Below are positions 293 through 62,500 of a stretch of 64,000 nt of DNA, one piece after another. A model generated the notes under the pieces. That model worked only from the letters and a program-made list of their open reading frames with translations. It did no database searches and was not told the DNA's origin. This DNA is from Chiloscyllium plagiosum (Eukaryota), in assembly GCF_004010195.1 (NCBI RefSeq), contig NC_057719.1:45876782-45940781 (forward strand). Direction: 5' to 3'. A program made the position numbers and the translations under genes. Positions within the stretch are counted from its first letter, which is position 1. Each line of letters opens with the position of its first letter.

Positions 293-416
293 ATTTGGAG
301 ACACTGGTGTTGGACTGGAGTCTACACAACCACCTGATGAAGGAGTAGAACAACTAAAACTAGTGCTTCCAAATAAACCTGTTGGACTATAACCTAGTGT
401 TGTGTGATTTTTAACT
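293..416 (+). mobile_element. Short Penelope-type terminus nested in an older Penelope-like remnant (~200-580)
   Basis: TSD TTTTGCTCTA at 283 and 417; CAC-CTGATGA...CTA-GTG. Confidence 0.7.
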
Positions 417-981
417 TTTTGCTCTAGGCATCCTCACCGTTCACTCCTCATCCACTCTGTCAACAGTGTGAAAACCATTGTATTCCAGCTCCTTCAGTTC
501 TGAAGCATCATTTTGACTTGAAACCTTAACTTTGTTTCTCTCTCCACAGATGCTACCAGACCTGCTGAGTTTCTCTCTTTTTATTTATAACTGGATGGGA
601 AAGCTGTGGATCTCCACTATAAAACTGTCTTAAAACAACTTCTCACACTCAAATGGAACGGAGTTTCTGTTTTTTGTCATCAGAATAGGGTTCTAGCTTA
701 TGGAGTGGTAGAGAGTAAGTGACTATGAATGATTACAGCTAGGAATAGGTCATTGGATCTGCAAGGTCCATGCTAGTCCTAAGTAAATTACCAAGTTCTA
801 ATGGGATATGCTCTCAGTCACGCTAGCCATCTACATTAGAAATTTTACTGTGGTCATTATTTAAATTGTAAATAGTTGATGATGTCAGTGCATGATACAA
901 AAAGCAATGAAATCAGACAATCCTGTGTGAACGCATAATAAATACAAACACTTATTTCAAAGGTTAATGATAAGGTCTCAC

Positions 982-1055
982 CATCAACTTCACAGAAGTT
1001 GTCTGTAGAATCATCATGTCTGTTCCAGTCCAATACTGCTTGTTTTGTTTCTTCA
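982..1055 (-). CDS. ERO1A: ERO1A exon 6
   Basis: 74 nt, [24 protein letters not shown]. Confidence 0.95.
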
Positions 1056-7000: not shown

Positions 7001-10000
7001 TTTGCTTCAAGAACCGAATGCCTGAGCTTCACAATATCCCTCAAAGCATAGCTTTCATGGTTTTTAAGGAATTGCCTGACTAAATGAATGCTTCGTAATA
7101 GCACAATGCTAGATTTCTCAACAGTAATTGATGAGAAAAAAAGACAAATATTTCTGTTGCAACAAAAATGTTATATCCATTCTCTAGTGGGTAAATCTCT
7201 GTTTTTATGAACATTTTAATTTCCTTTGTGCAAAACCCATATTAGATTGAAGAGGAAGGGATTAAGAGAAGGATCACATGTTGCACAATAACCATGGAAT
7301 TTGCTAACATGACACTCCAATTCCATAGGACAGAATGGACATGGATACTTTGGTTTACTTCCCTTTATTGGTCAGAGCATTGAGCCTTGGAGTTGGGAGA
7401 ACATGTTGCGGCTGTACAGGACTTTGGTTAAGCCACTTTTAGAATATTGTCTGCCATTCTGGTCTCCCTTGTATAGGAAGGATGTTGTGAACTTGAAAGG
7501 ATTCAGAAATGATTTACAATGATGTTGCCAGGGTTGGAGGATTTGAGCTATAGGGAGAGGCTAAATAGACTGGAGCTGTTTTCCCCGGAGAGTCAGAGGG
7601 TGAGGGGTGACCTTATAGAGGTTTATAAAATCATAAAGGGACATAGATATGGTAAATAGACAAGTTCCTTTCCCTGAGGTTGGAGAATCCAGAACTAGAG
7701 GGCATAGGATTAGGGTGAGAGGGGAAACATTTAAAAGGGACCTAAGGGGCAATTGTTTCACACAAAGGGTGGTCCAGGTATGAAATGAGCTGCCAAAGGA
7801 AGTGGTGGAGGCTGGTACAATTACAACATTTAAAATACATCTGGATGGGTACATGAATGGGAAGGGTTTAGAGGGATATGGGCCAAGTGCTGGCAAATGG
7901 AACTGGATTAGTTTAGAGTATATGGTCGGCATGGACAAATTGGACTGAAGGATCTGTTACCGTGCTGTACATCTCTATGACCCTAAGAACATAAACTCCA
8001 TGTCAAAAGTGCAAATAAAGAATAATGAAAGATTGACATACAGGTTTATTGATGTAAATTATATTTCCTGTCAAAACAAAACTTGAAAGTTTAATAAGGG
8101 GAACATTTTCACATCACATCTGACCAGATGTCTGTTAACTGACTCCAAAAGCCCAATTTTAATTTTACAGTGAATGGACTTTAACTGAGTCAAGGTCAGG
8201 CCCTCAGATTATCAATTCTACAATAAAAATCAATGGGCAGGTAATTTACTTCATGGATTCAATTTTATGGAGTGCCACAGTCTCTGCCCAGTCCAGCCAC
8301 AATTCCAATAGCTGTTCTGTAACAATTTAAAACAATTAAATTCTGTAGCCCCCATCTCATTAGCAAGTCCCAGCTTGAAGAGCACTGGTCAATCCAACTG
8401 ACTGCCAGCTCTAGTCCCAACAGTACCGAAAATGTGTTGCTGGAAAAGTGCAGCAGGTCAGGCAGCATCCAAGGAGCAGGAGAATCGACGTTTCGGACAC
8501 GAGCCCTTCTTCAGGAAGTCTGTCTCCAGCAGGCTAAGATAAAAGGTAGGGAGGAGGGNNNNNNNNNNNNNNNNNNNNNNNNNNNNNNNNNNNNNNNNNN
8601 NNNNNNNNNNNNNNNNNNNNNNNNNNNNNNNNNNNNNNNNNNNNNNNNNNNNNNNNNNNNNNNNNNNNNNNNNNNNNNNNNNNNNNNNNNNNNNNNNNNN
8701 NNNNNNNNNNNNNNNNNNNNNNNNNNNNNNNNNNNNNNNNNNNNNNNNNNNNNNNNNNNNNNNNNNNNNNNNNNNNNNNNNNNNNNNNNNNNNNNNNNNN
8801 NNNNNNNNNNNNNNNNNNNNNNNNNNNNNNNNNNNNNNNNNNNNNNNNNNNNNNNNNNNNNNNNNNNNNNNNNNNNNNNNNNNNNNNNNNNNNNNNNNNN
8901 NNNNNNNNNNNNNNNNNNNNNNNNNNNNNNNNNNNNNNNNNNNNNNNNNNNNNNNNNNNNNNNNNNNNNNNNNNNNNNNNNNNNNNNNNNNNNNNNNNNN
9001 NNNNNNNNNNNNNNNNNNNNNNNNNNNNNNNNNNNNNNNNNNNNNNNNNNNNNNNNNNNNNNNNNNNNNNNNNNNNNNNNNNNNNNNNNNNNNNNNNNNN
9101 NNNNNNNNNNNNNNNNNNNNNNNNNNNNNNNNNNNNNNNNNNNNNNNNNNNNNNNNNNNNNNNNNNNNNNNNNNNNNNNNNNNNNNNNNNNNNNNNNNNN
9201 NNNNNNNNNNNNNNNNNNNNNNNNNNNNNNNNNNNNNNNNNNNNNNNNNNNNNNNNNNNNNNNNNNNNNNNNNNNNNNNNNNNNNNNNNNNNNNNNNNNN
9301 NNNNNNNNNNNNNNNNNNNNNNNNNNNNNNNNNNNNNNNNNNNNNNNNNNNNNNNNNNNNNNNNNNNNNNNNNNNNNTAGGTAGCTGTGGGAGTCGGTCG
9401 GTTTATAGTAAATGTCCTTGTTGATTCGTTCGCCCAAGATAGAAATGGAACGGTCTAGGAAGGGGAGGGAGGAGTCTGAGACGGTCCAGGTGAATTTGAG
9501 GTCAGGGTGGTAAAGTCGATGAACTGTTCAACCTCCTCGTGGGAGCACTTGGCAGTGCCGATACCGTCATCGATGCAGTGGAGGAAAAGGTGGGGGGTGG
9601 TGCCAGTGTAGCTGCGGAAGATGGATGTTCCATACTGGGAGTGCAGGTAATTCCAACATGCTTAGTAGCTTTAGGTAGTTTGATTGCTTGACAAGTGGGG
9701 TGCGAATTAGTTTCAAGAAGTTAAAGCTTCTAGACTTCCTGCAATGACAGGGACCTCCCATCGTAGGTGAAATACCAACAGTGCCAGATGAATGTAATTA
9801 TTGACCACTTAAAGGCCTCAATAGGCCCAAAGATGGGCTAGTAACCTGACACCTTCAAATGGGCCAACTGGGCTAGTTTAAAACAGCCCAATGACTTATC
9901 AATGCATCTCAGGCAACAAATCACACAGGTGTCCCCAGAACTACAGAAAGGGAAGCTCTTAATCCACTACAAGTGATCTACGTTATAACCTGAAGACAGA

Positions 10001-13000
10001 CAGTCTAATTATGGCTAATAGACTACTTAAAATTGTATGATTTTTCAAAACGATATCAGTATTTGAACTCCTGCTGTTCATAACATATGTCAGTGATTTG
10101 AAGTTGGGGACCAAATGCAGTACTTCCAAATTTGTGGATGATGCAAAGCTAAGTGGGAATGTGTGTTGTCAGGAAGATGTAAAGTAGCTTTAGGCGGATT
10201 TAGACAAGTTTTGCGAACTGGCAAGAACTCAGTAGGTAGAATTTAATATGGAAAAATATGATGTTATCCACTTCAATAGGAGAAAGAGTTGCAGAGTATT
10301 GCTTAAATAGTAAGAAATTGGAAAGTGTAGATGTACAAAACGACCTAGGTGCCCTTATTAATGTCACTGAAGGCTGACATGCAAGTGTCATGCGCTATTA
10401 AGTCATAAATGGAATGGTAAATGTTACTGCAAGAGTCTTTGACTATGGGTGTAGTGAAGTGGAGCTTGGTTAAGCTGCACCTGGAATATGTTGTGCAGAT
10501 TTAGTCTCCTTATCTTGATATTATTGCCATCGTGGGAGTGCAGTGAAGTTTCATCAGACTTGATCCCAGAATGGCAGTACTGTCCTATGGAGAAAAAGTT
10601 GGAAAATGGACCCTTTATTCTCTAGAAGAGAATTCTATTCGAAGAATGAGGGGTGATGTCATTTAAACATACGACATACTGAAAGGAATACCGGGCAGGT
10701 AACATTTTCCCCAGATTGAGTATTCTGGAAACAGGGGATATAATTTCAAGATAGTGGGGTATACCATTTAGGTCAGAAATTAGGAGATTTTTTTCTTAAA
10801 CTCAGCTGGTTGTGAACCTTTGTAATTCTCTACCACAGAGGGCTGTGGAAGCTCAGTCTTTTCATATGTTTAAAGTAGAAATTGATAGATTTCTGAATAG
10901 TAAGGGCATAGAGGGTTTGGGGATGGGGTGGCTAAAAGCCATTGAGGTGCTTTGTGGTCATGATTATCTTAAATGGTGGGGCAGGCTTAATGTGCTGAAT
11001 GGCCTACTCTTTTTCATAAGTCCTCATGTTTGTAAATTTGTGTTACATTTCAACAGATAAATGTACCATGATCAGCATGTCCAGGTATATCCACTTTTCC
11101 CAGGATAATAATATTTTCATTAGATTTGCTAAAATATGCATTTGCAATTTAGTTTTTAAAAACTCATTTATGTGATACCTCAGTTGAAAAGAGCCTTTGA
11201 ACTAATTCTAATTCTCCCTTCAACAATTTTGTTGTGATTGTATTGTAAAGAACATGTCCTTTTTATTTTTCTGTCTTTTTCAAATGGTGAACAGAAATGA
11301 GAAAATAACTTAAAAACCAAGGATTGCTGCACTTTGGAAAGCAAGGAACCTAACTCTCATTGTAAGCATCATTTTGCTTACAATACAGTAAACAGCTCGA
11401 GGCCGTGAGAAAAAGATGGAGAGAAGCCTTCAGACCTCCACCAGCTCAAGAGCTCTGAGCTCCGATCACTGAACTACTTTCCCAGTTTTCCCTCCATCCA
11501 TAACATCCATGTCTTGTTTTCCTTGCCTGTGTGTATAAGGGGGAGTTTATAAGGCATTAGAATTTTAATTTGTTGCAAGGCGATGGTTCGTAGTTGGTCG
11601 TAGCTATTCTCTAATTATTCGTGAAAAATAATTAATTTTAAGTACAGGAAGCTGATCTGTGCATTCGAACAACTTGGTCTAAAAGGGAATTCTGCATCCT
11701 TTTTAAAAATCTTTAACTTTTGTGACAATTGTGGGTATAGCAGAGCTAGAATTCCAACATTCTAATTCACAGAGGCATGACAATATTTTATCATGCAAAA
11801 ACACAGAATTCTGATTAAAATCAATATGTAGATAAACTGAGACTGAGAACCCACAGCTTCATAATCACAGGCTGGATTTCTGTCACTTCCATATTCACTG
11901 TCAGAGCTTATCGTTATTAATATGGTTCATCGCCACCCAATATACTCCATATGAAACATTATACAATCAAAGGAAAGTCTGTATTTTGTAAAAAGAATGA
12001 TTATTATAATTTTCAAATATGCTATGGGGGTGGCATGATGGCTCAGTGGTTAGCACTGCTGACTCACAGGGACCTGGGTTCAATTCCTGCTGAAACATCG
12101 ATTCTCCTGCTCCTTGGATGCTGCCTGGCCTGCTTGCTTTCCCAGCAACACACACTCGACTCTGATCTGCAGTCCTCACTTCCTCCTAGTTGATTTTAAC
12201 CTTACTGTTAAGCCTCTTCCAAGGATGCTTACCTTGAGGAAGTTCTCCTCCTCTCTCTTCAAAGATCTCCATAGGTACCTTTTATATCTTTCCCCTCTCA
12301 CCCTGAACTATCTGGAATCTCCAAGTTCTAAGTCTAGCCATAGTGTTTATGAGGAGAAAGAGAAGTTACGTTTTGATCTCATTAATGCAATTTTAGGATC
12401 AAGAAGCAAGTTGCTTTATACTAATGTTGATATTGTAGTGCAAATCTGGAATCAGGGCTCTGCCTTAGTGACGACAAGTAATTGCATTTATATAATGCCT
12501 TTAATTCAGTAAAATATCCCAACATCAAACAAAACACTGCAGGTGCCAGGGATCAGCATTAAAAACAAAGTGAAAAACTGAGGAGATTTGGCAACAACTG
12601 TGGAGAGGGAAACAAAGGTAATGTTTTGAATCCAACTAACTTTCCAAATGAAGGGGACTGGCAGAACAGCATTATTTTACACTTTTTATTATAAAACATC
12701 TCAGCATGGCTCAGGGGTGATTATCAGACAAAAAAAGGCACCAGGTAACATTAAAAAACCAATAAATATTATTTCAACGTCATTCACTCAGAGTCAATAA
12801 GTCATAGAGGTGTATAGCACGAGAACAGACCCTTCAGTCCAACCCGTCCGTGCCGACCAGATATCCCAACCGGATCTAGTCCCACCTGCCAGCACTTGGC
12901 CCATTTTCCTCCAAACCCTTCCTATTCATATACCCATCCAGATGCGTTTTAAATACTGCAAAATGTACCAGCCTCCACCACTTCCTCTGGCAGCTCATTC

Positions 13001-14490
13001 CATACACATACCACCCTCTGCGTGAAAAAATGTTTTAGGTCTTTTTTATATTTTTCCCCTCTCACCCTAAACTTATGCCCTCTAGTTCTGGATTCCCCCA
13101 CCTCAGGGAAAAGACTTTGTCTATTTATCCTATCCATGCCCCTCATGATTTTATAAACCTCTTTAAGGTCACCCCTCAGCTTCTGATACTCCATGGAAAA
13201 TTGCCCTCGCCTCTCCCTGTAGCTCAAATCCTCCAACTCTGGCAACATCTTTGTAAATCTTTTCAGAACCCTTTCAAGTTTCACAACATCCTTCCAATAG
13301 GAAGAAGACCAGAATTGCACGCAATATTCCAACAGTGGCCTAACCAACATCCTGTACAGCTGCAACATGACCTCCCAACTCCTGTACTCGATACTCTGAA
13401 TCAATTTAGTTCAAGGCAGAACCCAGATTTAGTTATGATTCTAGTTCATGATCACAATCCAGTGTCTCATACTAAATAGATCTGGTCTGGATATTCAAAG
13501 ATAGAACTGGATAAGGCGGTGATGCCTTCTGCGCAGGGAGAAAGTGAGGACTGCAGATGCAGGAGATCAGTCAAAACGTGTGGCGCTGAAAAAGCACAGC
13601 AGGTCAGACAGCATCCGAGGAGCAGGAGCGTCGACGTTTCCCGTAGAAGCTCTTCATCAGGAAGAGTTTGGGACTCATGCCCCCTCCACAGTTACATGTT
13701 CTGAATATTCCCATACAAGTTCCCCTCATCCAAGCAGTTAGTAACTTCAGAAGAAGTGGGCATAAAAAATGACAACACTTCTACATGCAAGTTCAGTTGA
13801 ATATCTGCAATCCTATGGGTAGGGATGAAATTTTCTAGCTTGACTTAGTGACTCACTGACTTCAACGTGCATCGGATAATTATGAACCAAAGGAAATTTA
13901 ACTTACCATGGTTGGAAAGATGTTTGTTAATTTGTAAAAGTCCTCACACAGACACACCCTCTGATTAATAAGCAGAGTTGTGGTTAATGCTTGGTGACCT
14001 TTTCTTTTCTCGCCTCGACTCTGACCCGATACAATAGCTTTCTCATTCCGCATTGACTACGTGCTCAATCAACCGTTCACGTCTCAGACAGGGGCGAGCT
14101 GGCATCTTGCACAAAGCAACATCAGATACGCGGTACCTAGCGCATCCAAACTTAGAAACAGCATCAAGTATAAAAGAAGGTGGCCTTGCTCTGCACCAGA
14201 CATACCCCACTGTTATTAGCACTCTATTTGGGGGACATCGCTAGACTTAATGTCCTACATGGTTCTCATAAATGTGAGGGGGAGGGGAGGTTTACACACG
14301 CAACAAAGTAACTATGTTTTACACAGTTCAGATAAACCCTCACATATTCACATGAAATTATCAACAAAGATCCACCGTGTGTTACCTGATAGGAACATTT
14401 TTGTTCATCCACCTGCCCCTTTAAAGTCTGATGCTGTTTACACCGGGCTGAAAGTACACAAGAAAACAGCAAAAGGACCAGTGTCAACAT
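982..14490 (-). CDS. ERO1A: ER oxidoreductase 1 alpha, coding exons 1-6; gene continues beyond the left edge
   Basis: Exons 14490-14386, 6161-6042, 5949-5866, 3683-3645, 2667-2582 and 1055-982, all GT-AG and in phase. Translation ...[64 protein letters not shown]... matches ERO1A; position next to PSMC6 supports the alpha paralog. Confidence 0.95.
1160..2215 (+). mobile_element. Decayed LINE (APE endonuclease plus RT fragments, internally deleted)
   Basis: WVGDLNVHH endonuclease motif joined to [11 protein letters not shown] motif. Confidence 0.8.
2582..2667 (-). CDS. ERO1A: ERO1A exon 5
   Basis: 86 nt, [28 protein letters not shown](S). Confidence 0.92.
3645..3683 (-). CDS. ERO1A: ERO1A exon 4
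   Basis: 39 nt, [13 protein letters not shown] (human DEVPDGIKSASYK), polyT-CAG acceptor, GTATG donor. Confidence 0.9.
3786..5700 (-). mobile_element. CR1-type LINE, 3' portion
   Basis: RT-type reading on - strand, CR1 3' tail at ~3786; interrupted by a SINE. Confidence 0.8.
5078..5397 (-). mobile_element. tRNA-derived V-SINE (HE1-like), full length
   Basis: GGGCGGCACGGTGGCACAGTGGTTAGCAC head with A/B boxes, GTGTGGAGTTTGCAC core, (AATCT)n tail; nested in CR1. Confidence 0.9.
5866..5949 (-). CDS. ERO1A: ERO1A exon 3 (shuttle cysteines)
   Basis: 84 nt, [28 protein letters not shown]. Confidence 0.96.
6042..6161 (-). CDS. ERO1A: ERO1A exon 2
   Basis: 120 nt, [44 protein letters not shown] bounded. 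Confidence 0.96.
7345..7985 (+). mobile_element. CR1/HER1-type LINE 3' end
   Basis: [13 protein letters not shown]...WSP; near-identical to 12790-13400 and 21840-22590 in opposite orientation. Confidence 0.88.
8428..9635 (-). mobile_element. Penelope-like element spanning the gap
   Basis: Terminus nearly identical to that at ~51826; RT-type peptide HPDLKFTWT on - strand right of the gap. Confidence 0.75.
8559..9377. other. Assembly gap (819 N)
   Basis: Run of N; both flanks are Penelope-like sequence. Confidence 1.
10080..11030 (+). mobile_element. Old CR1 LINE 3' portion
   Basis: SKFVDDAKL motif, CR1 3' UTR. Confidence 0.8.
11171..11782. repeat. Possible solo LTR in ERO1A intron 1
   Basis: TGTGAT...ATGACA termini (5/6 inverted match), ~610 bp, internal TATAA; no clear TSD. 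Confidence 0.3.
12790..13400 (-). mobile_element. CR1/HER1-type LINE 3' end
   Basis: [21 protein letters not shown]. Confidence 0.9.
13535..13665 (-). mobile_element. Short Penelope terminus
   Basis: GAGAAAGTGAGGACTGCAGATGC...GACGTTTC...CTTCATCAGG. Confidence 0.8.
14386..14490 (-). CDS. ERO1A: ERO1A exon 1 (signal peptide)
   Basis: [35 protein letters not shown]: hydrophobic leader, phase-0 donor CAG|GTAAC, locally CpG-richer sequence. Confidence 0.8.
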
Positions 14491-14499
14491 GATAAGAAA

Positions 14500-16220: not shown

Positions 16221-16307
16221 TGAGAGATGGCATGGAGCAGGGTGACATGAGGCACATGGACACACAAGATGTCTGCTGAGCCATCAGTTGGCCACTTAAC
16301 ACATAAG

Positions 16308-16506
16308 GAGAAAGTGATGTGCAGATGCTGGAGATCAGAGCTGAAAATGTGTTGCTGGAAAAACGCAGCAGGTCAGGCAGCATCCAAGGAGCAGGAAAAT
16401 CAGCGTTTCGGGCATGAGCCCTTCTTCAGGAATCCCCGAAATATCGATTTTCCTGCTCCTTGGATGCTGCCTGACCTGCTGCACTTTTCCAGCAACTCAT
16501 TTTCAG
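16308..16506. mobile_element. Fold-back Penelope-terminus mini-element
   Basis: Inverted arms of ~70-80 bp; TSD CACTT(A/G)ACACATAAG at 16293 and 16507. Confidence 0.85.
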
Positions 16507-17585
16507 CACTTGACACATAAGTTGGTCGCCGGACCACAATATGCAGAGCAAATACACTGTCTGGGGCCATCAGAAGGCCAGCACAATGCATTCACAACCT
16601 ACTTAGTTAGTTTAAGGCAGGTGGGTGAGAGAATACACATGAGTAGCGTATACTGCCTGCTGAAGTGTCTGGGTCCAGCCAACACCTTTTATGGAAATGC
16701 TAACAGCTTGGTATGGACCCAGTACAGAGTGCTAATAGCCAGGGCTGCAGTAACCGTCCTTCTCAGGAAGAGCAATTAGCAGTCATTACTAGACCATTCT
16801 CTCGCTTTCTCCCTGTAACCCTTGATCATTTTGACAATCAAGAAACTATCTATCCCTCTTGTCTTAAATACGCTTAATGAGCTGTCCCCCACAGCCTTCT
16901 GTGGCAATAAATTCCATTGATTCACCACTCTCTGGCTGAGGAAGTTTCTCCTTACCTCCATTCTAAAGGGTCCTCCCCTTAGTCTGTGCCCTCAAGTCCC
17001 AGTCTCTCCTGCCAATGGAAACATTTTCCCAACATCCACTCTGTTCAGGCCATTCAATACTCTGTAAGTTTCAATCAGATCCCCCCTCATCCTTCTAAAC
17101 TCCATTGAGTATACACCCAGAGTCCTCAAATGTTCCTCATATGTTAAGCCTTTCATTCCTGGGATCATTCTCTTGAACATCCTCTGGATCTGCTCTAGAG
17201 CCAGTACATCCTTCCTGAGGTATCGGGTCCAAAATTGCGCACAATGTGATCTGACATTTATAAAGCCTCAGAAGTACATCCCTGCTTTTATATTCAAGTC
17301 GTCTCAAAATAAAAGCCAATATTATATTTGCCTTCCTCACTACCGATTCAATCTGCAAGGTTACCTCAAGTAAATCCTGGACTAGAACTCCCAAGTCCCT
17401 TTGCACTTCAGATTTCTGAATTTTCTCCCCAATCAGAAATGCCCCTATTCCCCCTACCGAAGTCATGACCTCACACTTTCCCACATTGTATTCTATCTGC
17501 CACTTCTTTGCCCACTGTCCTAACTTGTCTAATCTTTTCTGTGGCCTCCCCACCTCTTCAATACTACCTGTCCCTCTACTTATCA

Positions 17586-17890: not shown

Positions 17891-19704
17891 AATTTGCAAA
17901 TATAGCCAGAATGCTCTCAGTTCCTTCATACAGATTATTAATGCATAAAGTGAAAAGCTGTGGTCCCAATAGTTGGGACCACTGAACCTTCTGGAACACC
18001 ACTTGTCACAGGCTGCCACCCTGAGAAGGATCCTTTTATCCCCACTGTCTGCTTTCTGGCAGACAGCTTTTAACACCATGGGCTCTTATCTCACTCAGCA
18101 GCCTTCTGTGAGGCAACTTGTCAAAGGCCTTCTGGAAGTCCAGGTAGATAACATCCATTGAGTCTAACCTGCTCATTACCTCCTCAAAGAATTCTAACAG
18201 ATTTGTCAGGCATAACCTCCATTTGATGAAACTATGCTGACTCCGCCCTAAGTATTTACCAAGTATTCAGAAATCTCATCCTTCACAATGGACTCCAAAA
18301 TCATACCAACAGCTGAGGTCAGGCTAATCGGCCTGTAATTTTGCATCTTTTGCCTCACTCCCTTCTTAAATGGGGGGGTTACATTAGCGATTTTCCAGTC
18401 CTCTGGGATCCTCCCTGATGGCAGTGATTCCTGAAAGATCACCACTCATGCCTCCACTATATCTTCAGCTATCTCATTCAGAACTCTGGGATGTAATCCA
18501 TCCAGGCCAGATGATTTATCCAGCTTCAGACCTTCCAGTTTTTCTTGCATCTTTTCCTTGGTGATGGCCGTCATATTCACCTCTTCCACTCCCCCCCCCC
18601 CCCCAAATTCCCTTGAATCTTTATGATTTAACTCGTGTCTTCCATCATGAAGACTGACGCAAAGTAATTATTCAGTTCCTCAGCCATTTCTTCATTCCCC
18701 ATTACTACTTCTCCAGCGTCATTTTCCAGCAGCCCAATGTCCACTTCTGCTTCTCTTTCACATTTCTCTTGCAATCTTCTTTTATATTACTGGCTAGCTT
18801 ATCCTCATATTTAATCTTCTCCCTCCTTATTTGTTTTTTTTGGTGTCCTCTGTTGATCTTTGCAGGCTTTCCAATCCTCTGGCTTCCCACTGCCCTTGAC
18901 CCCATTATATGCTGTCCCTGGTTTCCCTTGTCAGCCATGCTTCCCTCATCATCCCTTTGGTTTGCTTCTTTTTTACTCAGGATGAATTTCTGCTATGTCT
19001 CCCAAATTACTCCCAGAAACTCCTGCCACTGCTGTCCCACTGTCTTTCCTGCTAGGCTCTTCTCCCAGTCAATTCTGGTCAGCTCACTCATGCATCTGTA
19101 GTTGCATTTATTCAACTGTAATACATCAGATGTTCAACACCTTCTCCCTCTCACATTGTAGACCAAATTCTATCAAATTGTGGTCAGTGCCTCCTAACAG
19201 TTCCTTCACCTTAAGCTCCTTTATCAACTCTGCCTCATTGCACAACACTAAGTCCAGTATTTCCTGTTCTGTAGTGGGCTCCACCACAAGATGCTCCAAA
19301 AAGCCATCTAGTAGACATTCCACAAATTCCTTTTCTACTACCACTACCAACCTGATTTTCCCAGTCCACCTGCATATTGAAATCCCCCATGACCACTGTA
19401 ACTTTGCCTTTCTTACACACCTCTTCTATCTCCTTGCATATCTTGTGCCCCAAATCCTGAATACTGTTTGGAGGCCCATACATAACTCCCATTATGGTTT
19501 TTTACCAATTGCAGTTTCTCAACTCTATCCACACAGATTCTACATCATCTGACCCTAATTCATTTCTTTGCTTAAATAATAGTATACGCTTGGATATTTG
19601 GCTCCCAGTCCCAATCCCCTTGCAGGCATGTCTCCGTGATGCCTACCATGTCATACCTGCCAATTTTGATCTGTGCCACAAGCTCATTTACCTTATTTCA
19701 TATA

Positions 19705-20446: not shown

Positions 20447-20477
20447 GCTACCCAAAGTGCTGCCTCCCTTATTATGC

Positions 20478-25574: not shown

Positions 25575-26550
25575 GCTTGCGCTTTCATTATTTTCCTGCT
25601 TTTCCTCCCTCTGTCATCCAGACAGCCCTCGACTGCACCACCTCTATTCCCAGTTCCACTGCTCTACACCCCTCCTCCAAATGCAATAAAGACAGAATTC
25701 TCCTTGTCCTTGCCTACCACCCCACCACTCTCTGCATCCAATGCATCATCCTTAAACTCTTCCACCAACTCCAAATAGACCACATCACCAAGAACATCTT
25801 CCCCTCTCCACCCCTCTTTGCCTTTTGCAAGGACAGTCCTTGGTTTGCGCTAATCTCCCTACCAACTCCACGGAATCACCAGGTACCTTCCCCGCAACCA
25901 GAAAAGATGCAAAACCTGCCGATACACCACCCCTCACCTCCATTCAGGGCCCCAAACAGACCTTTCAGGTGAGATAAAGGTTCACCTGCCTCTCTTCAAC
26001 CTAGTTTACTGCATCAGGTGTTCCCGATGTGGTCTTCTCTACATCGGAGAGACCAAAAGTAAACTTAGGGAACGGTTCGCCGAGCATCTCAGCCAGGCCT
26101 GCAGGTGCCGACCAGATCTCCCAGTCATCACCTATTTTCCCACTCCCTTTCTGACATGACCATCCTTGGCCTCCTCCATTGCCCCAATGAACCAAACCAC
26201 AAATTGGAGGAACAACACCTCATGTTCTGTTTGAGCCGCCTATAGCCTGGAGGACTCAACATTCAGTTATCCAATTTCAAATAACCTCCCTTTCCATCCC
26301 CTGGCTCCCTTCCCAACATCCCCACCCTTCCACCCTCCCAGTGATTCATTCCTCCCGTTGACCAACCAGGTCGTACCCTCTGCCCATCTTCACCTATCCC
26401 GACTTCACCACCCAGTTCCCCCCCGACGCCCTTTATCTGCAGGTCCCCCTACACCCACCCCCCAGTCCTGAAGAAGGGTTACACACGAAATATCGACTTC
26501 TCCACCTCCTGATGCTGCCTGGCTTGCTGTGTCCTTCCAGTCTCCTGACT
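25575..26550 (+). mobile_element. Penelope-like element, 3' part
   Basis: GIY-YIG peptide LVYCIRCSRCGLLYIGETKSKLRERFAEH at ~26001-26087, C-rich tail, hammerhead motif 26464-26498. Confidence 0.85.
26464..26498 (+). ncRNA. Minimal type I hammerhead ribozyme motif
   Basis: AGUC-CUGAAGA-A-GGGU-UAC-ACAC-GAAA-U-AUC-GACU; one mismatch in stem II. Confidence 0.65.
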
Positions 26551-26752
26551 GTCTACACTGTTTCATTATTAACAGCAGTACAAACAAGATACAGTTCATG
26601 GACTCAGCCATACCACCTCCAGCCACTAGAGGCTATACGGTTTGGAGGTAAGATATCTGTGTGGTCATATTTTCGTGCCCGAGAAGAGGCTCGTTGTCAA
26701 ATGCGGCTGAAAGCTTCTCCCCGTCCGGCGGTGCTTGGTGCTGAGCGTCAAC

Positions 26753-50079
<23,327 letters not shown>

Positions 50080-50474: not shown

Positions 50475-51792
50475 ATTTAAATTTACAAGAATTTGACCAG
50501 CTATTTGTTGAATACTTATGTAACACTTACAGATCTCCTGTGGCATTTTCATGGTGAATCAGAAGTTTTGAAAAAGTGTATTTTATTATCATTAACCAAG
50601 GACATTGATTTATCAACATTAGAAACAGACCTCTGGGAACAGGATCTAGGATATGGTATGGCAGGGTGGAGAATTAGACATGGTGCTACAGAATTTCTGA
50701 GATGTGCTCGTAGAAGTACTTAGACCACTTGCCCTTTAGTGTACTGTTTATATGTTAATCAACTTGTATAATATTTAATAGAAATAAGTTTCCAAAAGAA
50801 ATATAAAAGATTCTCACTTCATAATTACTCAGTTTCTAGGCTTTTGTACAGAAAGATTTCATTTCGCCTCATCACTTATTCTGAAGAGAATGTGTTTTAG
50901 CTGAATATGTGTAAGCAAAATAGAAATGAGTAACTATGAAAGAAAGATAAACAATTCTTTTCTGTGAATAAAGAAATTATGATCATAAGTGATAGTGATC
51001 ATAGGTGTTTTCTCTTTGCACAGTTTTTAAATATACAACAGCATTAAATAAATATAATCAGTTGTATGAAATTAAACTTTGACAATTAAATTTCTGTTAC
51101 ATTGAAGTCTTAGACACCAGCAAATTTTCATAGGGTGAGAGGGCTTGTCCTTCTACCTGTCAGCATTTGCTGATGCACACCTTTTGCAGTCAGAGACTCA
51201 GTAAAGTGTATAAATTCAAAATGCACACAATCAAAAGATCTGACTAATTGTTGAGGATGAAAAATGTCAGTAATGCTCAGGTCTTTACGATTGGTGAAGC
51301 TTTGAAGTAAAAGTTTATTTTTCAAAAACATTAAAAAGTCATTCAATAAGTATTATCATAGATTTTCTTTAAAGCTTTTTGTAAATCTTAATTCAAAATA
51401 TCTAATTCAATGTGTTTGAACCATATTTCCCAATAGAAATACTTTATTTTAATTATACCTGATATGAAAGATAAAAATTGGCACAAACTGGTTGTATGAA
51501 CATATGAAATAGGAATGGAATTCAGTTCTTCGAGCCTGTTCCAGAATTCAGTGAGATTATGCTTCATTTGTTTTGAATTCTCCATTTCCATTAACTTCTG
51601 AAAACCTTAGATTCTAGTTAGGCAAAGGAATCAATTTCTTAAAATTATTTAATGACACAGTCTCACTGCTTTCTGAGGTACAGAACTCCAAAGTGTCTCA
51701 GCCCTCTAAGAGCATTTCTTCTCTGCTCTGCTCTTAAGAGGTAACCCCTAATTTTTAAACATTGCTCTTTAATCCTTTGCTGACCATAAGAG

Positions 51793-52656
51793 AAAGTGAG
51801 GACTGCAGATGCTGGAGATCAGAGCTGAAAAATGTGTTGCTGGAAAAGCGCAGCAGGTCAGGCAGCATCCAAGGAGCAGGAGAATCGACGTTTCGGCCAT
51901 AAGCCCTTCTTCAGGAATGAGGAGGGTGTACCAAGCAGGCTAAGATAAAAGGTAGGGAGGAGGGACTTGGGGGAGGGACGTTGGGAATGCGATAGGTGGA
52001 AGGAGGTTAAGGTGAGGGTGATAGGCCGGAGAGGGGGTCAGGGTGGAGAGGTCGGGAAGAAGATTGCAAGTCAAGAAGGTCGTGCTGAGTCCGAGGGTTG
52101 GGACTGAGACAAGGTGAGGGGAGGGAAAATGAGGAAGCTGGAGAAATCTGCATTCATCCCTTGTGGTTGGAGGGTTCCTAAGTGGAAGATGAGGTGCTCT
52201 TCCTCCAGGCGTCATGTTGGCCTCCTCCATCGCCAGAGCATGGCAAGGACCTGCATGTCCTTGGCGGAGTGGGAGGGGGAGTTGAAGCCACGAGGTGGTT
52301 GGGTTGGTTGGTGCGGGTGTCCAAGAGGTGTTCTCTGAAACGTTCTGCAAGTAGACGGCCTGTCTCCCCAATATAGAGGAGGCCACCGGGTGCAGCGGAT
52401 GCAGTAAATGATGTGTGTGGAGGTGCAGGTGAATTTGTGGTGGATATGGAAGGATCCCTTGGGGCCTTGGAGGTAAGTAAGGGGGGACGTGTGGGCGCAA
52501 GTTTTGCATTTCTTGCGGTTGCAGGGGAAGGTGCCGGGAGTGGAGATTGGGTTGGTGGGGGATGTTGACCTGAGGAGGGAGTCGCGGAGGGAGTGGTCTT
52601 TCCAGAATGCTGATAGGGGAGGGGAGGGAAATATATCCTTAATGGTGGGGTCTGTT
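51793..52656 (-). mobile_element. Penelope-like element, 5'-truncated
   Basis: GLLYIGETGRLLAERFREHL; TSD TGACCATAAGAG at 51781 and 52657; hammerhead motif ~51882-51919. Confidence 0.88.
51882..51919 (-). ncRNA. Minimal type I hammerhead ribozyme motif
   Basis: AUUC-CUGAAGA-A-GGGC-UUAU-GGCC-GAAA-C-GUC-GAUU; one mismatch in each of stems I and II. Confidence 0.6.
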
Positions 52657-52674
52657 TGACCATAAGAGGAAATA

Positions 52675-53387
52675 GGAGAAAGTGTATACTGCAGATGCTG
52701 GAGATGAGAGTGAAGAGTGTGGTGCTGGAAAAGTACAGCAGGTCAAGCAGCAACCGAGGAGCAGGAGAATCTATGTTTCAGGCAAAAGCCCTTCATCAGG
52801 AATGAGGCTTGTGAGCCAGGAGTGTGGACACACAAATGGGAGGGGGGTTGGGACTGGGGGGGAACGTAGCTGAGAATGTGATTGGTTGATGAAGGTGTGG
52901 GTAATGGTGATAGGTCGGAGAGGAGGGTGGAGTGGATAGGTGGGAAGGAAGGTGGACTGGTCATTAGGACGGTGCCAAGTTGGAAGGTTGGATCTGGGAT
53001 AAGATGGGGGGAGGGGAAATTACGAAACTGGTGAAATCCACATTGATCCCATGTGGTTGGAGGATCCCAATGTCCATCGCCAAACCCTAACCACCCAAAG
53101 CCTGGATGAAGAATGCCTCATCTTCTGCCTTGGGACCCTCCAACCACACGGGACCAATGTGAATTTCACCAGTTTTCTCATTTCCCCTCCCCGCTCCCTA
53201 CCCCACCCTATCCCAGATCCAACCTTCCAACTTGGCACCGCCCTCATAACCTGTCCTACCTGTACATATTCCTTCCTATCTATCTGCTCCATCCTCTGAC
53301 CTATCACCATTAACCCCACCTTCATCTACTTAACACACTCTCAGCTACCTTCCCCCTCCCCTCCCCTCCCATTTATCTCTCCACATG
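52675..53387 (-). mobile_element. Penelope-like element with inverted segment
   Basis: Same terminus family as the neighbour; TSD TAAGAGGAAATA at 52663 and 53388; internal inverted repeat. Confidence 0.85.
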
Positions 53388-54737: not shown

Positions 54738-54923
54738 GGGAGAAAGTGAGGTCTGCAGATGCTGGAGATCAAAGTTGAAACTTTATTGCTGGAACAGCAC
54801 AGCAGGTCAGGCAGCATCCAGGGAACAGGAGATTCGATGTTTCGGGCACAGGGGAAGGGCCTGTGCCCGAAATGTCGAATCTCCTGTTCCCTGGATGCTG
54901 CCTGACCTGCTGTGCTGTTCCAA
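54738..54923. mobile_element. Fold-back Penelope-terminus mini-element
   Basis: Inverted arms; perfect 15-bp TSD GTTATACGAACATTG at 54723 and 54924. Confidence 0.88.
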
Positions 54924-56560: not shown

Positions 56561-59500
56561 TTTATTGCTTTGTTTTCACTCGTGTGTCTCAGGAGTAGCC
56601 GTGAAGTTTACTGAACTGTTCAGGCTCTTTTGTTTTTGTCTCGTGTGGCGATTCAGCTTCTTTTTAGGGAACAGTATTTATTTAATCTTGGCCGTGCTTG
56701 CCCCTATTTGACAAGTCAGCAACACGTGGGATTGAGGAACAAACCCAACTCCACTTAAACTTCAACAAAACATATTCAAAAGCGTTCAGGAAACGTTTTT
56801 GCTCTTTTTTTAAAAAAAAGACACGGATTAAAACTATTTATTAACCTCATGGTAAAATATCATAAGCTTTGAGCTAAAGAAGAAAAGGGAAGCTTGATGG
56901 TTGTGTAACCTGTGATCGTTCTTCCTGCTTGAGGCATGGGGAAGGCCTTCTGGCTGTTGGACTTAGCTGGAGCCTGAGCAAGAGTGAAAAAAGCTAGTAA
57001 AGGTATTCAGACATTCCTTACCAATGTAAGGTATGGTTACCTGTGTTTGGCGTTGGACATACCCAGGAATAAATCTCAAACAGGTACAATATTCTTAAAC
57101 TTTGGTTTCAGTTCCTTTTAAACATTGAAAATTACTTGGAGCAAAGAAGCGCATAACATGGATTTGACAAATTCCCGCCGAGCGGATTTGTTGAAAAAAT
57201 AAGAATTCCTAGCCCCTCATTTGCTCCAATAGCTATAGTATTTATTTGCCTGGTCCAGTTAAATTTCTGGTCAGTGATAATCCACTAGGATAGTGAAAGA
57301 TTTCGCGATGGTAATATTGCTAGACATCAGTGCGAGGTGGTTAGCTTTGATCTTGTTGAGGATGGCCCATTACCTGGCACTTGATGTGAATGTTAATGCC
57401 ATTTATCAATGTAAATCTGGATGTTGATCATGTCTTCATGAGGGCTATTGAACTTCTTAAGTATTGTTGAGGCTGCATTTTAAGAGGCACCATGACAGAG
57501 TTAATAGAAGTGACCTACTTCTCTTTCAAAGAGACTAATGACCAGTAGCATACATGTTGGATAAAGGGGAGATGAGAAACATTATTGTCAGGGGATGATG
57601 GACGTCTTGAACTGCCCAAAAGACTGATAGAGGCAGAATATCTCATCATCTTTAAAATTAATGCTTGGATATGCACTTGAATGTGGAAAGAGGGGTTAGG
57701 TTGAGTAGCATTTCTTTGGCCAGGACAGACCCAATAGGTTTCTTGCTGTAAATTTTCCTTTTAAGTGTAAAACATTAATTGGTAAAAGATGAAGTGGGCC
57801 CAGTAGGAAAAAACAAAGTTTAGAAAACATGCGAAATAGGTGGAGAGAGACAGAGGCTACAAAGAGATGCAGGTAAGTTAAGTTGTGGGCACACATCTGG
57901 CAAATAATATATGGGAAATGTGGAATTAAGGCAGAAGTGGATAGGTTCTTAATAACCAAAGGGCTGAAAGATTATTGGGGCTAGGTAGAAATATGGAGTA
58001 CAGTAATCAGATCAGCCATAATCTAAGTGAATGACAGAGCAGGCCTGAGGAGCTGCATGACCTATTCCTGTTCCTAGTTCTTGAATTCTTCATAAATAGA
58101 ATTAGTTTTCAGATACGTGGCCTTTTCATTAAAATCAGTTCTGACCGATCATTGATCTAAAATATTAAACTCTTTCTCTCTCTGTAGATTCTGACCAATT
58201 ATCTTGTTTTATGTATTTTTATTTCAGATTTACAGTTTTTTATACATTTAAATTAACCAAAAATACATTCATTGATTGTCAGAGAATCTCTTGCATTGAA
58301 TATTTAGGAGAATTTGATAGACAAAGCCAAAATTAGGAAATTCAAAATATAATTGGATCATAGGCTGGAAGAGTTGAGATTTTCAAGAAATTTTTTTTAA
58401 TGGACCACATTGGGGAATTTTGTTTTCCTTTCTATTGTGATTAAACTCAATGCGTCCTTTTTATAACAGAGTACTTTTTTATTTCAGGACTTCATTTTTG
58501 GAGATCATTAACAATTAATTCCTTTCTGCATAATGAGACTGTGTAAATATAATTTTTAAAAGTGTATACACCTTGCACTTCAAAAAAATTAAGTGGACAG
58601 TATTTTAAACTAACTTTTAAATGATAGCTCTGAACCCTCACCCCGACTGATACGGAATTGGGACCTCTGAAAATAATAACCAAGGTTTGACCACATGACT
58701 CTTGTCAACCCATGTCAAAGCAGACCTGTGGTTAAATCGGCTTCTCCTTTTTGAGTTATCTCCTATACTAAATGGTAATCCCTTAGATTTAATTACATTT
58801 GTGTAGCTGCACGGTTATAAACATAGACCTTTACAGATTTCAGCATTGGCTTCCATCTATCATGTCAGTTGATTGCAAAAAAAATTAATCATGATTTGTT
58901 ACTGAAACTCCTATCCTATCCTGTCTATTGAAGTACTGAGCACACTTTGATTATGATTGTGACTCTGGTACATACAGACTGTTTGCTAATTAGAATTGCA
59001 GTTAAAATTATGATAAAGACTTATTTTTGTAACTGCATTTTTAGTTCTTTAGCTGATGTTTGTTTGAAAGTATTACAATTAAACTGCAGTTTTATTTGAA
59101 AGTTGGTAACATTTGGTATTTAACTTTGGGAACTTTCATATTTTTCTTTGTAAGCTTTTTGATTGAAGTTAAAAATATAAAGAGCTGTTGCATTATTATC
59201 AGTGTAGATGCACTTTATTATTTGGCGTTTTCAAAAGTACAAATTGGCATTTCCCTCCAATAGTCATATTCCTTTCAAAGACAATCAACTCTTAACTTTT
59301 AAAAAATGAAATAGTTTTGTGGTCTGTTTGATTCAAGATTATTTCTCAAGGTAACTTGACATTCACGTGTGTGAAATCAGACTAAGCATGGAAGAAAATG
59401 TTTTAGATACAACTGGCAAAATAATCAGGCTGAAATTCAAAATCTGAAATAATGGTCATAAAAATTGGAGTTTTGGAAATAGGAAATAAATGCTGTGGTT

Positions 59501-62500
59501 TGAAGAGGTAATGAATTTTAAATGTCACAGATTCGAATTGGGCAAAAATGAGTGTTATCGATTACTCATGTTAGGAAGAATTCACAACTGTAATATCTTA
59601 CATAATTTTTTTTGCCGTTTAGGATTGGATATATCCAATGAGACGTGCGATGCAGGTAATCCAAGTGCTATTGTTTTACTGTTTGCAACACTGAGGCCTC
59701 TTTTATAGTTCATTCATTTTCTCATTGTATTAGTCATAGCATCATAGAATCCCTAGAGCAAAAGGAGGCCATTCAGTCCATTGAATCTTCACTGATACCC
59801 TGAAGAGCATTCCACGCAGACCTAGCTCCTTACCATATCCTGTAACTCCATATTTACTATGATTAATCCACCTAGCCTGAACACTACGGACAATTTCAGC
59901 ATGGCCAGTCAGCCTAATCAGCACATTTTTGGACTATATTGGAAATGGAGCACCTGGGAAACGTGCATAGAATGTGCAAACTCCATACAGACAATTGTCC
60001 AACGCTGAAATTGACTTGACAAAATCATTACTTATTATGATTATATTTCGCATTTTGTATGAAACAGCTAATAGCGAGTTTTGAGAAGATTTGTAGCTCA
60101 GGTTGAGATTTTAGATATAGGTTTGTGGGCGGCACGGTGGTACAGTGGTTAGCACTGCTGCCTCGCAGCGTCAGAGACCCGGGTTCAACTAATCTAATCT
60201 AAAAAAAAGGTTTGCTTGCTGAGCTGCAAGGTTCATTTCCAGATGTTTCGTTACCTTACTAAGCAACATATTCAGTGGGCCTCAGGTGAAGCAATGCTGA
60301 AAATTGCTGCTTTCTATTTATATGTTAGGGTTTCTTTGGGTTGATGATGTTATTTCCTGTGCTGAAGTCACTTCCTGTTCCTTTTTTCAGGGGCTGGTAG
60401 ATGGGGTCTAACTGGATGTGTGTGTTGATAGAGTTCTGATTGGAATGCCATGCCTCTAGGAATTCTCGTGCGTGTCTTTGTTTGGCTTGTCCTAGGATGG
60501 ATGAGTTGTCCCAGTCGAAGTGGTGTCCTTCCTCATCCGTATGTGAGGATACTAGTGAGAGAGGGTCATGTCTTTTTGTGGCTAGTTAGTGATCATGTGT
60601 CCTGGTGGCTAGTTTTCTGCCTGTTTGTCCAATGTAGTGTTTGTTACAGCCCTTGCATGGTATTTTGTAAATTACATTAGTTTTACTCATTATCTGTATA
60701 GGGTCTTTCAAATTCATTAGCTGTTGTTTTAGTGTGTTAGTGGGCTACCATGATACCAAGGGGTCTAAGTAGTCTAGCAGTCATTTCCAAGATGTCTTTG
60801 ATGTAGGGGAGAGTGGCTGGGTTTCTGGACATGTTTTGTCTGCAAAGACCCTATACAGATAATGAGCAAAACTAACACCATTTACAAAATATCGTGCAGG
60901 TCTGTAACAACACTACATTGGACAAACAGGCAGAAAACTAGCCACCAGGACACATGAACACCAATTAGCTACAAAAAGACATGACCATCTCTCACTAGTA
61001 TCCTCACATATGGATGAGGAAGGACACCACTTCAACTGGGACAACACATCCATCCTACGACAAGCCAAACAGAGACACGCACGAGAATTCCTAGAAGCAT
61101 GGTATTCCAAGCGGAACTGTATCAACAAACGCATCGAGTTAGACCCCCCCCCCAACTACTGCCCCTGAAAAAAGTAATAGGAAGTGACTTCTTCACTGGA
61201 AATAACATCACAGGGAGTGACATCACCAACCCAAAGAAACCCAAACATAGAAAGCAGGAATTTTCAGCATTGCTTCGCCTGAGGCCCATGAAGATGTTGC
61301 CTAGCAGGGTAACGAAATGTCTGGAAATGAACCTTGCAACTCAGTGAGCAAACCTACATCCTCAGCTAATAATAAATAGTTTTTTTTTGTGTCTTTCCCT
61401 TCATCTGTATTCTATTTTAAAAGTGTAACTGCCGAACTCATTCTGCACCTTTTCTTCAAAAGTGGCATTCTGCCTCAGGGCATCTGTTGGCTTACACGCC
61501 CAGCTCCATGGCTCTGCTATAGTAATGTTATGATGTGGAGGTGCCAGTGTTGGACTGGGGTGGAGAAAGTTAAAAATCACACAACACCAGGTTATAGTCC
61601 AACCAATTTATTTGGAAGCACTAGTTGTCGGAGCACTGCCACTTCGTCAGGCAGCTGTGGAGCAGGATCATAAGACACAATGTATAGAAAGATTACTGTC
61701 ATGCAACAGAAACAATATATTGAACAAACCGAGATTGCTGTAAATTAGAAACATCAGTGATAGATTAATTAACATGTTCCAGCTGCTGTTCTTCAACGTT
61801 TTATTTTGTGCTTTTATCCAATTCTTTTCACTGGTTTTTCTCTGGTTTGACAACACTTTTTACCTCTCCATATCCTTATTGCAGTTATCGCATTGTGACA
61901 TGGAGAGGAGCAGTTGTAGAGACATAGGTCGACCAAACTTCCATCCCCACAAAGATTGAGTGCATTCAAAACACTAAAATTAGAAAAATAAATTTGCTCT
62001 TGTCCTATTTGGATCATGTGGGGCATGAAAGCTGGCATAGATGTGCTGAGCTGAATGGCGCTGTTAATGAAGAGTGCCCTTGGGAATTGTAGTCCCCACT
62101 GTCAGGGTTGGAATGCAGATATCTGCAAAAATCTGGGCTGGGGAGGGAGTGGGAGAAGAGGATTGTGCATGTTGTGTAAATTAGGTATCATGTGTTAAGT
62201 TAAATCTTTACTATTTATAATTATGTAATTAGACAGCCATCACAAGTGTAATTTTCTTTTTGCATGTGATTGGATAGCTGCAGCATAAAGTTTTGGTATA
62301 TTCTAATTTTGAGTTCTTTGTAGTAGAATGCAGCTAAGTAGAAAAGTCCTGTGAATTTAGAAATAGAAAATGGAACTAATTTATAAACAATTGGAAAAGA
62401 ACAAAATGCAAACTGCAAACATATTTTCAATGAACAAGCAATAAATTAACATGGTATTAAACAGACAAAACAGCAGGTACAAAATTTAAAGACATTTCAG

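Follow-up and report, generated by a model that had tools for sequence, protein, structure and literature searches.

Probable fossil 3′ ends of Penelope-like retrotransposons with minimal type I hammerhead motifs in a genomic window of the shark Chiloscyllium plagiosum

The window, i.e. the whole 64,000-nucleotide stretch of Chiloscyllium plagiosum contig NC_057719.1 that was analysed, was found to contain 18 insertions belonging to five sequence families (A-E) (Table 1). With a probability of roughly 0.88, these copies are the fossil 3′ ends (pseudo-LTR, pLTR, followed by a tail) of endonuclease-bearing Penelope-like retrotransposons (Penelope-like elements, PLEs) whose source pLTRs carried a minimal type I hammerhead. 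The PLE-derived share of the window was about 9%, the boundaries being placed by eye. The weak nhmmer matches 6475-6403, 19016-19102 and 54152-54100 (E 0.004-0.28) were excluded from every count.

Table 1. Insertions in the window, the state of their hammerheads and their anatomy (handles in brackets)
Family	Position	Strand	Hammerhead	Other features
D	293..417	+	331-367 (C3 at 334), damaged	~25-nt inverted tail piece ahead of the hammerhead; 3′ end tail-less; 10-nt exact TSD
C, short	494..585	+	C3 at 500, damaged	
A, long (8514)	8429..9628	-	8483-8518, core intact, stem II 4/4, stem I 2/4, ACGU stub	Neptune-type RT remnant 9625-9378; N gap 8559-9377; ERO1A intron 1, sense strand
A, short	12089..12188	+		Start in stem II (+17); SINE-like fragment fused
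C, old	12530..12642	-	3′ half of motif only; G12>A	
A, short (13660)	13537..13664	-	Core intact, stem II broken (1/4)	Start ~-3; ERO1A intron 1, sense strand
A, head-to-head	16307..16510	.	- arm: 16398-16433, U16.1>C	- arm tailed; + arm without tail, start at +17; 15-nt TSD, 1 mismatch
B, 5′-truncated PLE (26468)	25593..26560	+	26464-26498, core intact, stem I 4/4, stem II 3/4, AUAU stub	Linker/GIY-YIG remnant 25601-26320; single 10-nt exact TSD encloses this remnant and the hammerhead
C, old	28946..29045	-	Core destroyed	
C	33746..33880	+	G12>A, cut-site change	Tailed
C, 115 bp (48939)	48929..49043	+	48935-48972, core intact, stems 4/4 and 5/5 (two G-U), stub CpG-decayed	11-nt exact TSD; PSMC6 intron, sense strand
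A, 5′-truncated PLE (51914)	51790..52655	-	51883-51918, core intact, ACGU stub, stems 3/4 and 3/4	CX4CxxC linker and GIY-YIG remnant (52658-52122); tailed; TSD ~12 nt, by eye
A (52799)	52675..53387	-	52768-52803, core intact, stub decayed	Inverted 5′ arm, EN C-terminus at 53090-53176 (+); tailed; 12-nt exact TSD
A, hairpin	54738..54923	.		Arm starts +15 and +5, in/just before stem II; one arm tailed, the other tail-less; 15-nt exact TSD
C, very old	58136..58235	+	Core destroyed	Weak nhmmer match, E 0.034
E, head-to-head pair, Penelope/Poseidon-type	60208..61360	.	60239-60278 (-), G8>U; 61285-61325 (+), C3 missing; stem II 7 bp	GIY-YIG remnants 60882-60367 (-) and 60908-61147 (+); ATG 28 nt ahead of predicted cut
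D (61650)	61538..61660	-	61618-61654, A14>C	Tailed
D, hairpin	62868..63036	.		Both arm starts in stem II; tail on one arm only

Abundance, pairing and decay of the hammerhead motif

The minimal type I hammerhead motif (CUGAnGA-N-stem II-GAAA-NN-UH) in the window is real. Six sites had an intact core with a 2-nt stub, while 500 block-wise dinucleotide shuffles yielded 0.93 on average and reached six only once. An intact core with paired stems (at least 2/4 pairs in stem I and at least 3/4 in stem II) was found five times against a shuffle mean of 0.07, with as many in none of the 500. A stricter descriptor gave two matches in the window and none in 40 shuffles, and with one core change permitted five were found against 0.55 in shuffles. 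Isolated core matches at 12578, 45830, 47681, 44024, 31528, 28379, 23732 and 683 were found without stub, NUH or stems and were set aside.

All 13 sites named in the initial annotation, whose coordinates give the low end of each motif, were found to be recognisable copies on the strand given there, and nine arms were added (12092+, 12626-, 16436+, 29038-, 54848-, 54853+, 58140+, 62930- and 62945+). Its expectation that the motifs were probably unannotated was borne out by Rfam, in which the window had no hammerhead match either at the gathering threshold or up to E=10. The Rfam mir-942 match (54819-54893) was found to be only the family A hairpin insertion.

The recurrent CUGAnGA/GAAA core that had been described was intact in 6 of the 13 sites (26464, 48935, 51882, 52766, 8482 and 13629) and altered in the other seven, either by the base changes given in Table 1 (16397, 61618, 60239 and 61286) or as damaged motifs (331, 496 and 33747). 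Most copies are dead, since an intact core was retained in 6 of 15 parsed copies, from families A, B and C and none from D or E, the fixed parse being approximate where indels occur. In families D and E no copy was whole, but each core base survived in one or more copies or arms. Position 10.1 was G in all six intact-core copies; the closing pair (10.1-11.1) was G-C in three, G-U in two and broken in one, and the stub was palindromic in four of the six. The self-complementary ACGU or AUAU stub reported earlier was present in 5 of the 13 sites (ACGU in four, AUAU in one) and was spoiled by CpG decay in some others; the 62945 arm suggests that the stub of family D was probably AGCU. Where the stems had been said to pair in the better-preserved copies, stem I of family A (AUUC/GAUU) proved to be mismatched (U-U) in 51914, 52799 and 16429 and had 2/4 pairs in 8514; a fully pairing 3′ arm was found only in the 54848 pair. 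Stem II was 4-5 bp long in families A-D and 7 bp in E. Free-energy folding of monomers gave the hammerhead fold in one of seven.

The stems were also found to covary between families, as had been proposed. In both copy sets the true pairing of the arms ranked first among the 120 permutations, with 28 Watson-Crick pairs against a permutation mean of 16, on a base of five families of which three are related. The cross-family test was carried out by core-anchored parsing because family E resisted MAFFT alignment with the remaining families. The alignment of A-C contained three pairs with two-sided change, which was equalled in 18 of 500 shuffles, slid controls being far lower. A covariance model built from families A-C retrieved copies of these three alone, with no D or E copy among its 40 matches to E=10. 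Among non-CpG changes in all family A arms, the core was changed at 1/68 positions and the rest at 83/825 (p=0.015), whereas in the young A subfamily the values were 1/38 and 9/293 and the core was not spared. The conservation of the family A core fits selection in the source lineages, and later selection is also compatible with it; the young A subfamily is, on these counts, judged to decay neutrally.

Penelope-like identity and number of lineages

The hammerheads had been assigned to Penelope-like termini, which was upheld for families A, B and E by endonuclease/RT remnants, TSDs and inverted arms; for families C and D, the 1 kb upstream of each copy in the window was found to be free of coding remnants. 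A Pfam GIY-YIG domain was found in family B at 25854-26156 (E 5.9e-6). Shark PLE proteins gave tblastn matches at 52742-52122, 25601-26320, 9625-9378, 60882-60211 and 60844-61284, each match being followed downstream by a hammerhead on its own strand, and 150 further RT/EN relatives were found to match the same sites. The layout of an RT followed by a C-terminal GIY-YIG domain upstream of the 3′ pLTR was found in A, B and E. A match near D61650 (E 0.005) is AT-rich and was judged spurious as a coding remnant. The PLE status of family C would rest on its kinship with A, and that of D on insertion anatomy.

The linker finger is the criterion separating Neptune from Poseidon (PMC8557442). The CX2-5CxxC linker was present in A51914 and in 57 of 63 relatives, decayed in the family B copy, and present in 0 of 20 family E relatives. 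By their linker, which is common to Neptune and Nematis, A and B are classed as Neptune-type, and family E is classed as Penelope/Poseidon-type by the lack of a linker finger and by an ORF start placed inside the hammerhead; the distance from the ATG to the cut was 28 nt in both E copies. The four to five lineages claimed at the outset correspond to five sequence families, of which A, B and C are related, leaving about three that are independent. The downstream sequence was common to A, B and C, and nhmmer gave cross-matches among them with E down to 8e-11. Translated tails had no match to the N-termini of long PLE relatives, and a full-length pLTR-ORF-pLTR copy was not found in the window.

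Insertion ends, proposed mechanism and alternative readings

Six inverted insertions were found in the window. All four head-to-head insertions of families A and D contained a tail, 30-40 bp long, on one arm only. Of 17 insertions, 5 had an exact TSD of at least 10 nt and 12 did not; among 388 random pairs, 3 did. The 5′ starts of 11 of the 18 insertions were located at -13 to +20 nt of C3, a count that leaves out D61650 and one C copy, whose 5′ ends could not be fixed, with no start between this region and about -270 and none at the cut site. A best-case geometric truncation model gave P=5.6e-5 for the cluster, the test region having been picked after viewing the data. A tail-only BLAST in the window found no copy starting after the ribozyme. 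One of the three excluded weak nhmmer matches could begin near the cut.

The lack of arm starts at the cut site indicates a template that was uncleaved at the hammerhead, and the clustering of 5′ ends by the core indicates that copying stops at the ribozyme. The location of the 5′ ends beside the core, with none at the cut, is possibly a new point. The shark pLTR hammerhead may tentatively be read as marking the end of PLE reverse transcription across unrelated families, shaping insertions without cleaving, a reading held to be less probable than its opposite. The cluster would be caused either by a folded or protein-bound ribozyme that stalls the RT, followed by a strand switch giving hairpins, or by RNA starts just before stem I.

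In the proposed mechanism, the pLTR of each source element would contain a minimal type I hammerhead, and the target would be nicked by the GIY-YIG domain of the PLE protein. Reverse transcription would then begin internally on the RNA, on both target strands, at two sites that are spaced about 35 nt and lie about 90-130 nt beyond the ribozyme; nicking and an internal start on both target strands have been obtained in vitro for the anole Poseidon (PMC11167929). The expected outcome is the pattern found here, with head-to-head arms, one tailed and one not, and a duplication of 10-15 bp. As the copies show, copying mostly halted at or just past the ribozyme, giving pieces of 90-135 bp, and at times continued into the endonuclease or RT gene, on a template not cut at the hammerhead site, where no arm start was observed. 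In the source elements selection would have kept the core and stems, as the cross-family covariation suggests, and the selected use, judged from the literature, was probably to process tandem transcripts slowly, with assistance from dimer formation or from protein. Inserted single copies could form no helix III, would probably not cut and would decay neutrally, consistent with the decay pattern observed.

A rather unlikely alternative is that the short copies, to which most of C and D and part of A belong, are not truncation products and form a non-autonomous SINE-like class, mobilised in trans by PLE protein, whose RNA starts at one fixed position just before stem I, given by a transcription start or a processing site. 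The clustered starts and their low truncation probability are in keeping with this, as are C48939, a 115-bp unit bounded by a TSD, the lack of common upstream sequence in five C copies, and the location of PLE promoters in the pLTR (PMC2377424). However, the region for the truncation test was chosen post hoc, the 5′ ends are scattered over about 35 nt with no single site, short and long A copies belong to one subfamily, and the hairpin junctions within stem II suggest stalling and template switching. It is very improbable that the copies are non-LTR retrozymes, tandem hammerhead-bearing units replicating via circular RNA. Such units are PLE pLTR-derived and known in one chondrichthyan (bioRxiv 10.64898/2026.07.22.740005), and the 52799 and 51914 hammerheads of family A lie 885 nt apart on the same strand; these two are nevertheless separate insertions with their own TSDs, every other pair is inverted, the repeat and self-BLAST maps contained no head-to-tail array in the window, and the canonical 6-bp helix I is absent from the motifs.

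That some copies (8514, 13660, 48939 and 26468) were co-opted as active ribozymes cutting host pre-mRNA is highly improbable. All four have intact cores on the sense strand and the conservation of the family A core would agree, but in the young A subfamily the decay of the core resembles that of the flank, stem II of 13660 is lost, 48939 is CpG-decayed both in its stub and at G10.1-C11.1, monomers of the class were inactive in vitro (PMC4209133), and an orientation bias is absent. Scarcely credible is a chance pattern within an amplified repeat, with no ribozyme ancestry: the copies are non-independent, Rfam was without a match and folding seldom yields a hammerhead, yet the unrelated A/B/C, D and E have the same core, identically placed with respect to the PLE end, and stems which differ between families pair and agree with the published consensus.

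Relation to known elements and to host genes

The class of minimal hammerheads in PLEs, their multi-family diversity per genome and their opposite-strand pairs are already known from metazoans (Cervera and de la Pena 2014, PMC4209133). Like those, the shark motifs are of type I and contain CUGANGA followed by one unpaired base, G10.1-C11.1, a short stem I and GAAA-N-N-UH with a palindromic stub, and they occur in several families per genome, mainly as single truncated copies and with opposite-strand pairs; unlike those, family A contains the U-U mismatch in stem I, and the stem II lengths given above differ. Among the rows of that paper, family A resembles that of Acropora Neptune, and family D has the GC stub and the CCAAAUAAA 3′ flank in common with that of the turtle Chrysemys, whereas none of the legible rows of its Fig. 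S3 is from a cartilaginous fish. A shark catalogue of PLE hammerheads was not found in literature searches, so that the known PLE feature is here extended to shark families missed by Rfam.

Families A and B resemble Neptune-clade PLEs (Craig 2021, PMC8557442) in the C-terminal GIY-YIG domain with a CX2-5CxxC linker, the pLTR hammerhead, 5′ truncation, the inverted arm and the one-sided tail. Family E resembles Poseidon_Ac of Anolis (Frangieh 2024, PMC11167929), with a Poseidon-type endonuclease without linker finger and an ATG at the start of stem II, the cut following 28 nt on (26 in PAc), and all families fit its two 3′ ends (tail) and uncleaved template. Both E cores are broken, whereas the PAc ribozyme was shown to require the protein (PMC11167929). 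Non-LTR retrozymes (Li 2026, bioRxiv) likewise contain a type I hammerhead in short PLE-derived units, whereas the copies here are dispersed monomers and head-to-head pairs with TSDs, without tandem arrays.

What PLE hammerheads do is left open in the literature (PMC8557442, PMC11167929), and insertion ends may provide a readout: ends at the cut site would point to cleaved templates, and ends beside the ribozyme, as here, to templates that stayed uncleaved and to a boundary set by structure or by a promoter. Reported counts per genome are about 4,000 hammerheads in coelacanth and 9,000 in Xenopus (PMC4209133), and the local density here looks much higher. If the 2-6 intact-core motifs and 18 insertions in 63 kb here are representative, on the order of 10^5 intact-core motifs would be expected per shark genome, a figure far above the published counts of other vertebrates and extrapolated from one window picked as rich.

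The genes in the window were ERO1A, PSMC6, which was named by a PDB search, and a third gene, which we take to be STYX-like and for which the PDB search yielded no name. Single-arm intronic copies were found in the sense orientation in six cases and in antisense in five, a near equality that is expected if monomers are harmless. The family B copy (26468) was located just upstream of PSMC6.

Hammerhead copies and stem pairing

All 13 sites named in the initial annotation were found to carry a hammerhead copy, seven of them with a broken core. An intact core with a 2-nt stub (the residual helix III) was found six times in the window against a shuffle mean of 0.93 (six reached in 1 of 500 shuffles), followed by five occurrences of intact core, stub and paired stems together against a mean of 0.07 (reached in 0 of 500) and two matches to a stricter hammerhead descriptor against none across 40 shuffles. 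Hammerhead matches were absent from an Rfam scan of the window. The motif is real and was correctly classified; the copies are a further, mostly decayed example of a known motif class. Self-BLAST and nhmmer widened the set to 22 arms in 18 insertions and five families (A to E), and the core was intact in six of 15 parsed copies, all of family A, B or C. These three families were found to match one another through a common downstream segment, so that only three independent lineages (A/B/C, D and E) remain of the four to five proposed earlier, the count of five families being retained.

The stems had been said to differ among families and still to pair in the better-preserved copies, which was borne out. 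In a core-anchored test with one copy per family, in which 5′ and 3′ arms were paired in 120 permutations, the true pairing gave 28 Watson-Crick pairs against a permutation mean of 16 and was the best of the 120, followed by 29 against 15.6 in a second copy set. The seven-copy A-C alignment was found to be paired in 80% of cells (8-46% in slid controls) with two-sided change at three pairs, reached by 18 of 500 shuffles. Several points weigh against this. Of the five families compared, three are related. Stem I of family A contained a U-U mismatch, with five of seven cells of the alignment unpaired at that position. The D and E copies were not recovered by a model trained on A-C. Free-energy folding gave the hammerhead for only one of seven monomers, which is expected because the motifs are without helix III, and was not counted as support.

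Several families of this motif in one genome, single truncated copies and opposite-strand pairs, all as in the window, were described in the available part of Cervera and de la Pena 2014 (PMC4209133), which also contained inactive monomers, dimers of low activity and hosts among fish, lamprey, coelacanth, frog and reptiles; sharks did not figure among the rows in that part of its listing. Retrozymes in one chondrichthyan were present in the accessible portion of Li et al. 2026 (bioRxiv). The literature search found no relevant paper on hammerhead ribozymes of shark Penelope-like elements (PLEs), of elasmobranchs or of Callorhinchus, and none devoted to shark PLEs. Excerpts of PMC8557442, PMC6765202, PMC2377424, PMC3846280 and PMC6155905 were also used for comparison.

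Origin and anatomy of the insertions

The window was found to be CpG-depleted vertebrate DNA (about 40% GC, CpG o/e 0.29), with top protein matches in the carpet sharks Stegostoma, Chiloscyllium and Hemiscyllium. The STYX-like name received no backing from a PDB search.

Coordinates of features in the window
Feature	Position	Strand	Remark
Gap	8559-9377		only one in window
ERO1A exon 1	14466-14380	-	gene extends past window start
PSMC6	26756 to about 50100	+	
Gene, presumably STYX-like	from about 56278		
Decayed LTR-retroelement	41781-44162	+	inside an intron of PSMC6; Pfam matches to RT, RNase H and an integrase zinc finger, each in its own broken frame
tRNA-like SINE family, presumably HE1-like	5187-5397, 12028, 17586, 20478, 34878, 41430, 60127		AATCT-repeat ends
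CR1/L2-like LINE fragments (many)	1489, 18039, 19238, 24591		Pfam matches
GIY-YIG domain	25854-26156		Pfam, E 5.9e-6; 239 frames scanned
Family B PLE end	25593-26560	+	about 200 nt upstream of PSMC6 ATG (26756), same strand, beside CpG island
Two independent family A insertions	51790-53387	-	intergenic; overlapping target sites; form a natural tandem of two same-strand hammerheads spaced by 885 nt
Inverted arm of 52799 insertion	53130-53387	+	ends about 25 nt before ribozyme core, away from usual 3′ end
Stretch directly 5′ of 8514 hammerhead	8519-8531	-	13 nt in place of usual sequence; resembles inverted bit of family tail
Family E endonuclease	60908-61165	+	55-62% identity to liver-fluke (Opisthorchis, Clonorchis) PLE proteins
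Weak nhmmer matches	6475-6403; 19016-19102; 54152-54100	-; +; -	may be very old A/C-type ends

Shark PLE proteins were found to match upstream of hammerheads 51914, 26468, 8514, 60275 and 61288 (copies numbered by core base C3), always on the ribozyme's strand, the RT motifs of 8514 lying past the gap. The same sites were matched by 150 additional relatives, which gave no match around families C and D. In family B, one 10-nt duplication encloses both the GIY-YIG remnant and the hammerhead. The CX2-5CxxC linker, a mark of Neptune/Nematis in the accessible text of PMC8557442, was present in family A and 57 of 63 relatives and in 0 of 20 family E relatives. In family E, stem II opens with an ATG that lies 28 nt ahead of the predicted cut, as in Poseidon_Ac, where the distance is 26 nt in the available part of PMC11167929.

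Exact duplications of at least 10 nt were found to flank five of 17 insertions against three of 388 random pairs; the 51914 copy, with about 12 nt common to its flanks by eye, was excluded because a neighbouring repeat confounds the search. All four head-to-head insertions of families A and D contained the tail on one arm only, the pattern reported in the portions available of PMC8557442 and PMC3846280. The 8514 and D334 copies, and perhaps C48939, were without a 3′ tail.

Position of the 5′ ends

The 5′ ends of 11 of the 18 insertions were found within -13 to +20 of C3, five insertions extended at least 270 nt beyond this zone and two were without a fixable start. The most favourable geometric truncation model gave P=5.6e-5 for the 11 starts, a value qualified by the choice of the zone after inspection of the data. 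No insertion started at the cut site (+28 in family A), and tail-only searches found no copy beginning there, three weak nhmmer matches being set aside. The templates were therefore uncleaved, in agreement with Poseidon_Ac, whose main substrate is unprocessed RNA in the excerpt consulted.

Termination of the copies is caused by something at the ribozyme. The junctions of hairpin insertions were found to fall in stem II, which points to stalling of the RT at the ribozyme with a strand switch that would end the copy; or else the RNA's own 5′ end may set the start. No description of such a pile-up at a PLE ribozyme was found in a literature search thin on subscription journals and Repbase.

Fate of the copies and individual loci

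Among non-CpG positions of nine family A arms, pooled from several subfamilies, 1 of 68 in the core and 83 of 825 outside it were changed (p=0.015); in the young A subfamily (four arms) the changes were 1 of 38 and 9 of 293. In the older families the core was damaged, in five of six C insertions and in every D and E copy, CpG decay was found to strike the stub and the C11.1-G12 step, and intronic single-arm copies were six sense and five antisense to their host genes. Taken together, these were read as selection of the hammerheads in source elements followed by neutral decay once inserted.

The sense strand of ERO1A intron 1 contained intact-core family A motifs at 8514 and 13660 (-), 5.1 kb apart with ACGU stubs, which could in principle pair with each other; the 13660 copy has lost stem II. 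The family B pseudo-LTR upstream of PSMC6 may act as a promoter. The fluke likeness of family E makes an old horizontal transfer possible. Several annotated shark host proteins (MAP3K7, CUEDC2, EYA3 and WBP2 isoforms) were found to have family E endonuclease sequence as their final portion, either as exonised PLE pieces or as annotation errors.
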